A DNA stretch of 64,000 nucleotides from Escherichia coli (GCF_013122565.1 NZ_CP053258.1), one strand, 5' to 3'. Shown: positions 37,894-43,452, counted from the first letter of the stretch. The notes: generated by a model not told the origin, from the letters alone. Made by a program: numbers and translations.

Positions 37894-40800
37894 TTACGCC
37901 TTCTCGATGTTGACTAAGAACGCTTTATATTCCGGCGTTTGCGAGTTTGCATCACCGACATTCGGCGTCAGAGTGTTAGCGATATAACCTTTACGCGCGA
38001 CACCCTCAAAGCCCCAGTGGATCGGAATACCCACCGTTTCAACCTGCTGACCATTTACATTCAGCGGTTTCAGACGGCGCGTTACCACCGCCACCGCGCG
38101 GATAAAGCCACGCTTGCTTGAGACAGTGACACGATCGCCATTATTAATGCCTTTCGCCGCCGCCAGCGTTTCGCTGATTTCCACAAACTGTTCCGGCTGA
38201 GCAATTGCGTTGAGCAACGCGTGCTTGGTCCAGGTGTGGAAGTGCTCGGTCAGACGATAGGTCGTACCCACATACGGGAACTGCTCTTTTTTACCCATCC
38301 GCAGCGCGTCTTGTTCATACAGACGAACGACCGGGTTAGACACCACGTTCGGATGCAGCGGGTTAGTGCCCAGCGGCGTTTCAATCGGCTCGTAGTGTTC
38401 CGGGAACGGACCTTCCGCCATTTTGTTGATGGCAAACAGGCGTCCCATCCCTTCCGGCTGCATGATAAACGGCCCGGTTGGCGTACCCGGTGCGGCATTG
38501 CCGAAGTCCGGAATATCGTTACCCGTCCACTTGCTGCCGTTCCACTGGATCAGCATCCGTTTCGGATCCCACGGTTTACCGTTGATATCCGCCGAAGCAC
38601 GGTTGTAGAGTACGCGACGGTTGAGCGGCCACGCCCAGGCCCATCCCAGCGTATTCCCCAGACCGGACGGGTCGGAGTTATCGCGGTTAGCCATCTGGTT
38701 GCCCTGCTCTGTCCAGCTACCGGTGTAGATCCAGCAAGAAGATGCGGTTGTACCGTCATCACGCAGATGCGCAAAGCTACTCAGCAACTGACCTTTCTTC
38801 GCAATCAGCACGCCATTTGCGTCATAGAGATCTTCCAGCGCATAGCCGTTGTTCTCTTTTGCCACTTCGTCAGATTGCGGTTCGTGCGGCTGCTTGTAGT
38901 TCCAGCTCATCTTCATCAGCGGTTCTACGCCTTTACCACCTTCGGCCTGGTACAGCTCGCGCAGATGATGGTAGATACCCGCCAGAATTTCGCCGTCGTT
39001 ACGCGCTTCGCCCGGCGCGTCCTGACCTTTCCAGTGCCACTGCAACCAGCGACCGGAGTTAGCGATAGAACCATCTTCTTCGGCAAAGCAGGTCGAAGGC
39101 AGACGGAATACTTCAGTCTGAATAGACGCCGGATCGACATCGTTCGACTCGCCGTGGTTCTGCCAGAAGGTAGAGGTTTCAGTCACCAGCGGATCGATAA
39201 CCACCATGTACTTCAGCTTGCTCAGGCAGCTCACCACTTTGTTTTTGTCCGGGAAGGACGCAACCGGGTTAAAGCCCTGGCAGAAATAACCGGTGACTTT
39301 GCCTTCGTCCATCATGTTGAAATACTTGATGACGTCGTAGGTCTGGTCCCACTTCGGCAGCCAGTCATAGCCCCAGTTGTTCTCTTTCTGCGCGGCATCG
39401 CCATAGAAAGATTTCATCAGGCTAACGAAGAACTTCGGATAGTTGCTCCAGTAGTTCACCTGATCAGCCAGCGTCGCTTTCGGCGTGTTCGCTTCCAGAT
39501 ACGACTGCAAATCAACCTGTTTTTCTGACGGCAGCGTCAGATAACCTGGCAGGCTGGTAGAGAGCAGGCCTAAGTCAGTCAGGCCCTGAATGTTGGAGTG
39601 ACCACGCAATGCGTTCACGCCGCCACCGGCCATACCCATGTTACCGAGCAGCAACTGGATCATCGCCATAGTACGGATGTTCTGCGCACCCACGGTGTGC
39701 TGCGTCCAGCCCAGCGCGTACAGGAAGGTGGTTGTGCGATCCGGTGCGCTGGTGGAGGCCAGCACTTCACACACTTTCAGGAAGTCGGCTTTTGGCGTAC
39801 CGCAGATGTTTTCAACGACGTCCGGCGTGTAGCGGGAAACGTGCGCTTTCAGCAGGTTCCACACACAGCGCGGATGAGTCAGTGTTTCATCGCGTTTCGC
39901 ATAGCCGTTTTCATCGAACTGATAGTTCCAGGACGATTTATCGTATTGCCGTTTTTCAGCGTCGTAGCCGCTGAACAGACCGTCTTCGAAAGCAAAATCA
40001 TCACGCACCAGCAGGCTGGCGTTGGTGTAATGCTTAACATATTCGGCGTTGATTTTGTTGTTTTCGATCAGGTAGCGCAAAACGCCAGACAGGAACGTAA
40101 TGTCCGTACCGGAACGAATAGGTGCGTAAATATCCGCCACAGAAGCGGTACGCGTAAAACGGGGATCGACAACGATCAGGGTTGCATCGTTGTTGTTTTT
40201 CGCTTCCATCGCCCAGCGGAAACCGACGGGATGCGCTTCCGCAGCGTTACCGCCCATTACCATTACGACGTTAGCGTTTTTGATATCCACCCAGTGGTTG
40301 GTCATCGCACCGCGACCAAATGTTGGAGCAAGACTTGCTACCGTTGGTCCGTGTCAGACGCGCGCCTGGTTGTCTACCGCCAGCATCCCGAGGGAGCGGG
40401 CAAATTTCTGGGTCAGCATCCCGGTTTCGTTGCTGGCACCGGAGGCACACAGCATACCGGTAGAAAGCCAACGGTTTACCGTTACGCCCTGCTCGTTCTT
40501 TTCAATAAAGTTAGCGTCACGGTCAGCTTTCATCAGCTTCGCAATACGGGTGAATGCTTCTTCCCAGCTAATGCGCTGCCATTTGTCAGAACCTGGCGCA
40601 CGATATTCCGGGTAGCGCAGACGGTTTTCGCTGTTGACGTAATCCAGCAAACCGGCCCCTTTCGGACACAGCGCACCACGGCTTACCGGATGATCCGGGT
40701 CACCTTCAATGTGATAAATCGCTTCTCTGGCGTTTTTCGCGCCATCACCCAGGCTATACATCAATAGCCCGCAACCTACGGAACAGTATGTGCAGGTGTT

Positions 40801-40941
40801 ACGGATCTCTTTAGCGCGTAATAATTTGTAGTTTCGCGCCTGAGCCAGTGCTTGCTTCGGGGCAAAGCCCAATGCCGCTACTGTTGTTCCAGCCATACCG
40901 CCCGCGCAGATTTTAAAAAATTGTCTGCGACTGACGTCCAT
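37894..40941 (-). CDS. fdnG: Formate dehydrogenase-N alpha subunit, selenoprotein; in-frame UGA (Sec) at 40354-40356, about 1015 aa
   Basis: Two adjacent same-frame minus-strand ORFs (40354..40941 and 37894..40305) separated only by one TGA; Tat signal RRQFFK at the N-terminus; molybdopterin enzyme motifs. Confidence 0.93.
40311..40353 (-). ncRNA. Candidate SECIS stem-loop immediately 3' of the fdnG UGA (mRNA element)
   Basis: mRNA after UGA: CACGGACCAACGGUAGCAAGUCUUGCUCCAACAUUUGGUC, with GACCAA...UUGGUC and GCAAG...CUUGC complementary arms. Confidence 0.6.
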
Positions 40942-41172: not shown

Positions 41173-42054
41173 ATGACACGACAAAAAGCAACGCTCATAG
41201 GGCTAATAGCGATCGTCCTGTGGAGCACGATGGTAGGATTGATTCGCGGTGTCAGTGAGGGGCTCGGCCCGGTCGGCGGTGCAGCTGCTATCTATTCATT
41301 AAGCGGGCTGCTGTTAATCTTCACAGTTGGATTTCCGCGTATTCGGCAAATCCCGAAAGGCTATTTGCTCGCCGGGAGTCTGTTATTCGTCAGCTATGAA
41401 ATCTGTCTGGCGCTTTCATTAGGGTATGCGGCGACCCGTCATCAGGCGATTGAAGTGGGTATGGTGAACTATCTATGGCCCAGCCTGACAATTCTCTTTG
41501 CCATTCTGTTTAATGGTCAGAAAACCAACTGGCTGATTGTACCAGGATTATTATTAGCCCTCGTCGGCGTCTGCTGGGTGCTAGGCGGTGACAATGGGTT
41601 ACATTATGATGAAATCATCAATAATATCACCACCAGTCCATTGAGTTATTTCCTGGCGTTTATTGGTGCGTTTATCTGGGCAGCCTATTGCACAGTAACG
41701 AATAAATACGCACGCGGATTTAATGGAATTACCGTTTTTGTCCTGCTAACGGGAGCAAGTCTGTGGGTTTACTATTTTCTCACGCCACAACCAGAAATGG
41801 TATTTAGCACGCCCGTCATGATTAAACTCATCTCTGCGGCATTTACCTTAGGATTTGCTTATGCTGCATGGAATGTCGGTATATTGCATGGCAACGTCAC
41901 TATTATGGCGGTAGGTTCGTATTTTACGCCCGTACTTTCCTCAGCGCTTGCAGCCGTGCTGCTCAGCGCCCCGCTGTCGTTCTCGTTCTGGCAAGGCGCG
42001 CTAATGGTCTGCGGCGGTTCCCTGCTCTGCTGGCTGGCGACACGTCGTGGTTAA
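41173..42054 (+). CDS. yddG: Aromatic amino acid exporter (DMT family), 293 aa
   Basis: Ten-helix EamA-like membrane protein, full length. Confidence 0.93.
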   Translation: MTRQKATLIGLIAIVLWSTMVGLIRGVSEGLGPVGGAAAIYSLSGLLLIFTVGFPRIRQIPKGYLLAGSLLFVSYEICLALSLGYAATRHQAIEVGMVNYLWPSLTILFAILFNGQKTNWLIVPGLLLALVGVCWVLGGDNGLHYDEIINNITTSPLSYFLAFIGAFIWAAYCTVTNKYARGFNGITVFVLLTGASLWVYYFLTPQPEMVFSTPVMIKLISAAFTLGFAYAAWNVGILHGNVTIMAVGSYFTPVLSSALAAVLLSAPLSFSFWQGALMVCGGSLLCWLATRRG

Positions 42055-42058
42055 AATA

Positions 42059-42083
42059 ACTGCCGGGTCTACGGCCCGGCAGT
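42059..42083 (+). terminator. Hairpin after yddG
   Basis: ctgccggg / loop / cccggcag; no strong T tract. Confidence 0.45.
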
Positions 42084-42313
42084 TAATCAGATAAATTCCG
42101 ACAATATTAAAAAAATAAACTTCAAATACCAGTAATTCACCTTATATCTCATTTCGACTTCGATCACATATCGATAAATAATATTATTTCATCTATTTTT
42201 CTCATTGTTTTTAATCACCGTTCTATTTTAAAAACAGTATGTCATTTATAAATGACGCCGTTTAAAATTCGTTTAGAAAATACGTTTAACGATAATTAAA
42301 AGGATTCTGTTAA

Positions 42314-43414
42314 ATGAAATTAAAAATAGTTGCGGTGGTTGTAACTGGTTTGTTAGCTGCGAACGTAGCACACGCTGCCGAAGTCTATAACAAGGATGGT
42401 AATAAACTCGACCTTTATGGCAAGGTTACCGCTCTACGTTATTTTACTGATGATAAGCGTGACGATGGTGATAAAACTTATGCCCGTCTCGGCTTTAAAG
42501 GAGAAACGCAAATCAATGATCAAATAGTTGGTTTTGGTCACTGGGAATATGATTTTAAAGGCTATAACGATGAAGCCAACGGCTCGCGCGGCAACAAGAC
42601 CCGTCTGGCCTATGCAGGTTTAAAAATTAGTGATTTTGGCTCTCTGGACTATGGTCGTAACTACGGTGTCGGCTATGACATTGGTTCATGGACCGATATG
42701 TTGCCAGAATTTGGTGGCGATACCTGGAGTCAGAAAGATGTCTTCATGACATACCGTACCACCGGTGTAGCAACCTATCGCAACTACGATTTCTTTGGCT
42801 TAATTGAAGGGCTGAACTTTGCCGCGCAATATCAAGGCAAAAATGAACGTACTGACAACAGTCATCTTTATGGTGCTGACTACACGCGCGCCAACGGTGA
42901 CGGTTTCGGTATCTCCTCAACTTATGTTTATGATGGCTTTGGTATCGGTGCGGTATATACCAAATCTGATCGGACAAATGCGCAGGAAAGAGCCGCTGCT
43001 AATCCTCTCAATGCCTCCGGTAAGAATGCAGAACTGTGGGCTACAGGTATAAAATATGGTGCCAACAACATCTACTTTGCAGCTAATTACGCTGAAACAT
43101 TAAACATGACCACCTATGGCGATGGTTATATCTCGAACAAAGCACAAAGTTTTGAAGTGGTGGCGCAATATCAATTCGACTTCGGCTTGCGCCCATCACT
43201 CGCTTACCTGAAATCGAAAGGCAGAGATCTGGGCCGCTACGGCGACCAGGACATGATTGAGTATATCGACGTTGGTGCGACGTATTTCTTCAACAAAAAT
43301 ATGTCGACCTATGTTGATTATAAAATCAACCTGATTGATGAAAGCGATTTTACCCGTGCCGTAGATATTCGCACCGATAACATCGTCGCTACGGGCATTA
43401 CCTATCAGTTCTAA
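42314..43414 (+). CDS. Intact OmpC/OmpD-family general porin, 366 aa (yddL position)
   Basis: Signal peptide ...[20 protein letters not shown]; porin hallmarks (PEFGGDT, C-terminal ...TYQF); adjacent to yddG as Salmonella ompD is. Confidence 0.88.
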
Positions 43415-43427
43415 CATCCTCTCCTGA

Positions 43428-43452
43428 CCAGCCCTTCTCTGGGCTGGTTTTT
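43428..43452 (+). terminator. Rho-independent terminator after the porin gene
   Basis: ccagccc / ttctct / gggctgg followed by ttttt. Confidence 0.8.

Follow-up and report, generated by a model that had tools for sequence, protein, structure and literature searches.

An intact porin gene beside yddG in Escherichia coli as the likely positional orthologue of Salmonella ompD, surviving in K-12 as the yddL fragment

The stretch of the Escherichia coli chromosome that follows yddG raises the question of what the complete porin gene found there in some strains is, how it relates to the short yddL fragment that K-12 has at the same place, and what it would mean for the strains that keep it. The locus has been described several times. 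In EHEC O157:H7, z2239 is the first ORF of O-island 62, and of the K-12 remnants yddL resembles its 5′ end, while yddJ is similar to z2242 at the 3′ end; z2239–z2242 were treated as one recently acquired island of 33–36% GC, and the ORFs of the EAEC 042 island were numbered 1601–1599 (Okeke et al., 2011, PMC3079680). Ec042-1601 of EAEC 042 was called an “apparently functional ompD”, and the same paper pairs ompD with the nmpC pseudogene of K-12 (Chaudhuri et al., 2010, PMC2808357). Salmonella sRNA papers also take prophage nmpC as the ompD-like gene of E. coli, and a 2023 survey continues to consider that K-12 yddL might encode an outer-membrane protein of 96 aa (PMC9976479).

The gene is therefore already known, having been published as z2239 and as the ompD Ec042-1601, both of which are identical with the one analysed here in gene and in locus. 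Those papers give neither deletion junctions nor population frequencies, and the K-12 counterpart is given as nmpC, not yddL. To them we add the exact junctions, a census of three alleles, a correction of the OmpC and nmpC names, and the loss of the signatures of a major porin. Our material is a 64,000-nucleotide stretch of E. coli DNA (NZ_CP053258.1; hereafter the window), in which a first-pass annotation had noticed a complete porin of the OmpC/OmpD family lying next to yddG. We consider it very probable that this gene is the positional orthologue of ompD, that it encodes an OmpF/OmpC-type pore, and that it came down by vertical descent, was demoted to an accessory porin with weak or conditional expression, and was deleted twice within the species.

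The porin gene is a single unbroken ORF that starts with ATG, encodes 366 aa and contains no internal stops, both in the ORF listing and on direct reading of the sequence (Table 1); the overlooked stop that the first-pass annotation had named as a possible flaw is absent, also when alleles are compared. The Pfam profile Porin_1 (PF00267) is matched from end to end, with residues 27–366 corresponding to profile positions 1–337 of 337 (444.8 bits, E = 3e-133, cut-off 23.7), and residues 22–366 match the solved OmpC, OmpK36 and OmpF chains at E values of about 1e-127. Because the unbroken frame is accompanied by this end-to-end match, by matches to solved porins and by yddG alongside, it cannot be a chance ORF. 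Residue 1 of mature OmpC (2j1n) aligns with residue 22, which predicts a signal peptide of 21 aa cleaved before AEVYNK, with the A-x-A and AE(V/I)YNK pattern of porin signal peptides present. General porins require a C-terminal aromatic residue, the terminal Phe, for outer-membrane assembly; the protein ends in ...GITYQF, and Y364, Q365 and F366 are invariant in the porin alignment. The first description of a complete porin with signal peptide and C-terminal strand is thus borne out by the reading frame, the full domain, the predicted cleavage site and the YQF end. The region upstream is strongly AT-rich (about 30% GC), and when all of the window was scanned against Rfam, the only match was the fdnG SECIS element, with none tied to the porin.

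Table 1. Features of the yddG–porin–LRR locus, in window coordinates
Feature	Position	Strand	Basis or remark
yddG (aromatic amino acid / methyl viologen DMT exporter)	41173–42054	+	NCBIfam NF008676 YddG equivalog, 472.5 bits vs cut-off 194
AT-rich intergenic region with putative porin promoter and 5′ UTR	42055–42313	+	alignment to Salmonella and C. koseri ompD upstream DNA
Predicted porin transcription start	near 42241	+	alignment to Salmonella +1
AAGGA ribosome-binding site	42300–42304	+	9 nt before porin ATG
Porin gene, E. coli positional orthologue of Salmonella ompD	42314–43414	+	ORF, profiles, tree, synteny, model
Predicted signal peptide, 21 codons; contains weakened RybB site (CDS 18–27) and lost SdsR position (CDS ~38–52)	42314–42376	+	OmpC alignment, duplex calculations
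PEFGGD motif of constriction loop L3, residues 131–136	42704–42721	+	OmpF/OmpC alignment, invariant columns
Intrinsic terminator: 9-bp stem (6 G-C pairs), 6-nt loop, T run	43426–43454	+	begins 12 nt past porin stop
LRR gene 1, EspR2-like, 419 aa from ATG, GC 35%	43584–44843	+	low-GC foreign part of O-island 62
LRR gene 2, GC 34%; shares 95% identity with EspR1 of O157:H7 (type III secretion effector by annotation)	44906–46159	+	
K-12-type deletion 1, 1,547 bp	42595–44141		6-bp repeat CGGCAA at 42589–42594 and 44136–44141
K-12 second deletion, 653 bp	44462–45114		12-bp repeats CATTGATTTATC at 44450–44461 and 45103–45114
Empty-site segment, 4,152 bp, swapped for 6 bp	42136–46287		CFT073, ATCC 11775 (type strain) and similar; yddG then narU

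Within the family the nearest relative is OmpD. The window porin shows 72–74% identity with Salmonella OmpD, 77% with the syntenic porin of Citrobacter koseri and 68–71% with the prophage porins NmpC/Lc, as against 61.7% with OmpC, 60.3% with OmpF, 59.0% with PhoE and 62.0% with OmpN of K-12. In a neighbour-joining tree of mature sequences with bootstrap, it falls in an OmpD/NmpC clade supported at 99%, in keeping with the family first assigned to it. The C. koseri porin, also of 366 aa and with the same flanks, is the closest full-length relative outside Escherichia and appears as its sister at 82% bootstrap, with the window porin on a long branch; this pairing, in place of a position outside a group of Salmonella and Citrobacter, makes the deeper branching order tentative. 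That the gene is instead a relocated OmpN or PhoE orthologue, which the first-pass annotation had raised against itself, has next to no chance of being right. OmpN is marginally the top match among the K-12 paralogues, but the scores of 455.9 and 457 bits lie well under the PhoE (599) and OmpF (583) equivalog cut-offs, the tree splits OmpN, OmpC, PhoE and OmpF from the window porin at the same 99%, and ompN itself is found at another locus, next to micC and ydbK.

A different name is attached to the protein in the databases. In RefSeq it is WP_171459394.1, “porin OmpC”, and every full-length match is annotated “ompC: porin OmpC”, as is the C. koseri porin, so that the gene might be read simply as OmpC, or as a second copy of ompC, following the RefSeq/PGAP label in its carriers. 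This reading is hardly tenable. The NCBIfam model NF007841 “porin OmpC” is indeed matched, but it is a subfamily and not an equivalog model, and its cut-off is barely cleared (494.7 against 484 bits), which is why the label is given. The protein stands outside the OmpC/OmpN group in the tree, the true ompC is at another locus, beside micF and rcsD, and Salmonella members of the same clade are named OmpD. OmpC identity is thus ruled out by phylogeny and locus, and the RefSeq name is, judged by these, a misnomer. Among database groupings, the 90% protein cluster that holds the window porin also contains Roseburia LepA proteins, which we take as a clustering artefact.

The surroundings of the gene bear on its origin. 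Gene order in the window follows that of the E. coli chromosome through ydeQ, gadBC, dosCP, ddp, osmC, maeA, adhP, fdnGHI and yddG, and downstream of the porin come two LRR genes, narU and narZYWV, on to ansP and yncE. Salmonella ompD and the C. koseri porin occupy the same slot, in the order fdnI-fdnH-fdnG, yddG, porin, a variable segment, narU and narZ, so that the window porin lies where members of the ompD group are found, directly 3′ of yddG and within fdnGHI...narU-narZ; the position beside yddG noted in the first annotation is confirmed and extends to C. koseri. The variable segment consists of GFA-smvA-smvR in Salmonella and C. koseri and of the two LRR genes in the window. The 260 bp upstream of the porin can be aligned with the upstream regions of ompD in both genera, with conserved blocks at GATCACA, at TTTAAAAAyAGTmTGyCATT around the Salmonella +1, and at the ribosome-binding site; the 5′ UTR of Salmonella ompD, whose start has been mapped, is 69 nt long (PMC3333887, PMC4911921). 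The porin and yddG have diverged equally from Salmonella at synonymous sites (pS 0.70 and 0.71, respectively), the flank used for this comparison being yddG and not narU. The GC content of the porin is 44.5%, close to that of phoE and ompN, compared with 34–35% for the LRR genes and 50.4% for Salmonella ompD.

These observations have to be weighed against an origin by horizontal transfer, in which the porin would have arrived together with the low-GC LRR genes of O-island 62, or with a prophage as an NmpC/Lc-type porin, and would not be a vertical orthologue of ompD. Such an origin might be suggested by the published treatment of z2239–z2242 as a single recent island (Okeke et al., 2011, PMC3079680), by the long branch, low codon bias and GC below that of Salmonella ompD, and by the prophage NmpC/Lc porins, which are 68% identical and belong to the same broad clade. 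We nevertheless regard it as quite unlikely. The LRR genes have a much lower GC than the porin, both flanks and the slot are common to Salmonella and C. koseri with GFA-smvA-smvR in place of the LRR genes, the promoter and 5′-UTR DNA is alignable with that of Salmonella, and the porin has diverged at synonymous sites as much as the adjoining yddG; acquisition together with the LRR island is disfavoured on each of these counts. As to a prophage source, there are no phage genes near the porin, its neighbours being core chromosomal genes and the LRR genes, and a prophage NmpC/Lc origin is rejected for lack of phage context. NmpC/Lc of lambdoid prophages share the OmpD/NmpC clade with the window porin, but they are prophage-borne, lie at another locus and have another signal peptide (MKKLTVAISAVAASVLMAMSAQA). 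The K-12 representative, nmpC of DLP12, is disrupted by IS5.

Because the clade, the shared slot, the alignable upstream DNA, the synonymous divergence equal to that of yddG and the GC above that of the LRR genes all agree, these comparisons show the window porin to be the vertically inherited positional orthologue of ompD, which descended with the yddG–narU locus. The foreign-looking part of the published O-island 62 looks to be the LRR part only.

Alignment places the lesion that left the fragment in K-12. K-12 matches the window up to 42594 and resumes at 44136; both ends carry CGGCAA, a 6-bp microhomology, and the deletion is of 1,547 bp. With it go porin codons 94–366, the terminator and, from LRR gene 1, the initial 558 nt of its GTG-started ORF (43578). 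What is left as yddL comprises the first 93 porin codons plus 2 nt and then runs out of frame into LRR gene 1 for three codons, which yields the 96-aa YddL ending in ...GSRGKNL*. The second K-12 deletion, of 653 bp, joins both LRR genes into the yddK/yddJ remnant. K-12 yddL is thus a deletion stump, and the evidence points to it as what K-12 retains of the ompD orthologue. The claim that only the yddL fragment survives in K-12 could therefore be confirmed and made precise, and with it the claim that the window comes from a lineage not of the K-12 type, since yddL is a mere 5′ fragment of the intact window gene. In other strains, among them CFT073 and the type strain ATCC 11775, a longer segment is missing and yddG is followed by narU (Table 1).

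How the three alleles are distributed was assessed in 5,426 complete E. coli genomes, with genomes counted as carriers if they have the portion missing from the K-12 gene. The gene is carried by 1,101 genomes (20.3%), the K-12 deletion junction is found in 3,140 (57.9%) and the empty yddG–narU site in 1,118 (20.6%), and together these three states account for 98.8% of the set. Two different deletions have removed the porin from roughly four in five of the complete genomes, the 1,547-bp event leaving yddL and the 4.15-kb event leaving an empty site. The window allele itself is uncommon, with only nine genomes reaching 99% identity or more across the 3′ portion, and it differs from the O157 allele at six residues (98.4% protein identity, about 97.8% in DNA); the change D249G is private to it.

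The predicted structure agrees with the sequence-based assignment. The AlphaFold model (pLDDT 75.8) has 16 long strands and a short N-terminal strand that completes strand 16, which corresponds, as a prediction, to the 16-stranded antiparallel beta-barrel of general porins. Foldseek aligns it with OmpC 2j1n at TM 0.86/0.91, and over OmpC, OmpK36 and OmpF the TM scores are 0.85–0.93. In general porins the transverse charges, in OmpF numbering, consist of basic K16/R42/R82/R132 facing acidic D113/E117, with L3 bearing PEFGGD. Aligned with OmpF and OmpC, the window porin keeps all constriction residues, namely K16, R37, R76, R127, D107, E111, D115, Y96 and Y100 in mature numbering, and the acidic D107, E111 and D115 on L3 are opposite the basic K16, R37, R76 and R127. 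OmpC and OmpF (2J1N, 2OMF/1OPF) thus share its fold and pore architecture, but are only about 60–62% identical and differ in locus and regulators, micF adjoining ompC. The precursor would be exported via Sec with removal of the 21-aa signal peptide, the mature protein of 345 aa would fold into the barrel and, by homology, form outer-membrane trimers, and L3 would fold into the lumen with its acidic residues against the basic cluster, giving an OmpF/OmpC-type diffusion pore for small hydrophilic solutes. Because the fold model is accompanied by every constriction residue of OmpF and OmpC, we expect a trimeric non-specific diffusion pore.

The window gene and Salmonella ompD are alike in slot, in upstream DNA, in a signal peptide of the MKLKLVAV... 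type and in identical constriction residues. Salmonella OmpD (STM1572), however, is a major porin with strong codon bias, three sRNA sites in the CDS (RybB, SdsR and MicC) and GFA-smvA-smvR downstream. Codon bias was measured by Nc and optimal-codon fractions, which serve as a proxy for expression only. The window porin has an Nc of 50.9 and a CTG fraction among Leu codons of 0.32, compared with 34.5 and 0.84 for Salmonella ompD and 33.6 and 0.83 for the C. koseri porin; in K-12 the values are 29.0 and 0.89 for ompC, 37.1 and 0.78 for ompF, 40.4 and 0.63 for ompN, and 46.3 and 0.61 for phoE. The fraction of two-fold NNY codons ending in C is 0.40 in the window porin and 0.71 in Salmonella ompD, and ATA and AGA/AGG codons occur in it. 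The codon bias of a major porin is thus lacking in the window gene, whereas the C. koseri porin has it and keeps all three sRNA sites.

Duplex energies for the sRNA seeds, computed with the E. coli sRNA sequences, give a similar picture. For RybB they are −18.3 kcal/mol in Salmonella, −17.4 in C. koseri and −13.7 in the window, where the pairing is of 8 bp with two G-U wobbles. For MicC (codons 23–26) the values in Salmonella and C. koseri are −15.8 and −15.7, and in the window there is no duplex at the site; for SdsR (+40 to +60) they are −21.1 and −19.3, against −6.2 in the window, which is weaker than for shuffled sequence. The published sites are recovered in the Salmonella controls, down to the 6 + 7 bp architecture of SdsR, and by the same calculation the MicC and SdsR target sites in the CDS of the window porin are lost. 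This loss bears on regulation and leaves orthology unaffected. In the E. coli lineage, the porin would therefore have lost hallmarks of a major porin, namely its strong codon bias and the target sites for MicC and SdsR. Because of the weak codon bias and the lost sites, it is probably not a major porin but an accessory one, comparable to OmpN and expressed weakly or conditionally. In the literature on the E. coli gene, searched also under the locus tags Z2239, ECs2073/2074, ECs2076 and Ec042-1601, no expression or functional study was found.

A gene so quiet by these measures could also be a relic that looks intact but is silent, plays no part in the outer membrane and is in the course of being lost. 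The two independent deletions that leave four-fifths of genomes without the porin fit this idea, as do the weak codon bias with its ATA and AGA/AGG codons, the loss of two of the three conserved sRNA sites, the AT-rich upstream region and the silence of the literature on expression. So do seven private changes at positions that are invariant in 28 other porins, where other members of the clade have 0–3. The long branch, on which a three-point comparison places a dN of about 0.10 for E. coli against 0.04–0.065 for the other two branches, and these private changes could reflect relaxed constraint.

The alleles themselves speak for upkeep. Of 60 evenly sampled carriers, 58 have the whole annotated gene, with one split and one truncated, and between the window and O157 alleles dN/dS is 0.135, a value that comes from only 18 substitutions (12 synonymous and six non-synonymous changes). 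On the strength of these two results, purifying selection appears to be acting on the porin within E. coli, so that the gene is maintained where it is kept. A neutral relic would gather frameshifts across some 1,100 genomes with DNA differences of up to about 5%; moreover, the pore-lining and folding motifs are all retained, and neither the promoter block nor the ribosome-binding site nor the terminator is damaged. We therefore consider the silent relic improbable, though the best placed of the alternatives. Given whole ORFs in nearly all sampled carriers, the low dN/dS and intact constriction residues, the gene looks functional as an accessory porin, and its contribution to permeability may be small.

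A fuller history of the locus can be proposed, to which we would give about even chances. In it, the true ompD of E. coli is the gene at the yddL locus and not nmpC. It would have been demoted to a quiescent accessory porin, with decay of codon bias, loss of the MicC and SdsR sites, a weaker RybB site and protein evolution about two-fold faster. Two deletions, each common to many lineages, would then have removed it from some 80% of genomes, leaving the remaining carriers with a conditional extra pore.

The understanding of porins is unchanged by this gene, which belongs to a very familiar family, is unremarkable within it and lies at a locus already described. In about 1,100 complete E. coli genomes it goes under the misleading name “porin OmpC”. 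Its carriers, which include O157:H7, O145, EAEC 042 and the source strain of the window, would possess a fifth or sixth general porin. OmpD in Salmonella and Enterobacter affects beta-lactam entry, phage and colicin susceptibility and antibody recognition, and an additional porin of this kind could affect the same properties in E. coli, its expression being suggested to be low. In Salmonella, OmpD has been reported to work with the YddG exporter. If the history proposed above is true, the extra pore of the carriers might likewise work with the adjoining YddG, or might be a strain-specific target for phages or antibodies.

The segment that carries the intact OmpD-type porin gene (window 42055–43577) is 99.9% identical to the corresponding sequence of the E. 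coli comparison strain LHM10-1, whereas the 60 kb around it reaches only 97.3–98.6% identity to the same genome. The sequence comparison suggests that the porin locus is a recombination mosaic. Elsewhere, LHM10-1 carries an IS1 inside the sulfatase gene 5' of ydeM, while the window is free of IS1 at that point (about 6130–6139). A SECIS element (see table) adjoins the in-frame TGA that divides fdnG into two ORFs in the mechanical ORF list (37894–40305 and 40354–40941); this TGA is the codon already known to specify selenocysteine in formate dehydrogenase-N.

Within the porin itself, codon 249 (window 43058–43060) encodes Gly in the window allele and falls within a KYDANN turn. By contrast, the residue is Asp in all 28 of the other aligned porins, as it also is in the LHM10-1 and O157 alleles. 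Structural modelling places this residue in a predicted tight turn joining two strands. Upstream of the gene, positions 42136–42313 have a GC content of about 30%, and this region contains a conserved GATCACA block which, judged by its sequence, resembles a CRP half-site. Salmonella ompD is reportedly dependent on cAMP-CRP.

In the protein database, the 90%-identity cluster to which the porin belongs has a Roseburia LepA/EF4 protein of 603 aa as its representative, and its 9,017 members are of mixed identity. This looks like a clustering artefact, one that probably explains why the porin's exact cluster is absent from the homology search list.

Downstream of the porin lie two leucine-rich-repeat (LRR) genes, both with a GC content of 34–35% and sharing only 29% identity with each other. 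LRR gene 1 is the counterpart of "EspR2" and is uninterrupted in the window, in contrast to O157 Sakai/EDL933, in which EspR2 is split, and to LHM10-1, otherwise the closest genome, in which it is a pseudogene. The O157:H7 homologue of LRR gene 2, EspR1, is annotated in the database as a type III secretion effector.

Features located in the window
Feature	Coordinates	Strand	Details
SECIS element	40301–40359	−	Rfam RF01989, 84.3 bits
LRR gene 1	43584–44843		419 aa from ATG 43584; ORF-finder start GTG 43578
LRR gene 2	44906–46159		95% identity to O157:H7 EspR1
12-bp repeats, identical	44450–44461 and 45103–45114		CATTGATTTATC; in the two LRR genes

The 12-bp repeats held by the two LRR genes mark a second deletion in K-12, of 653 bp, and the yddK/yddJ fusion remnant of that strain is the product of this deletion.
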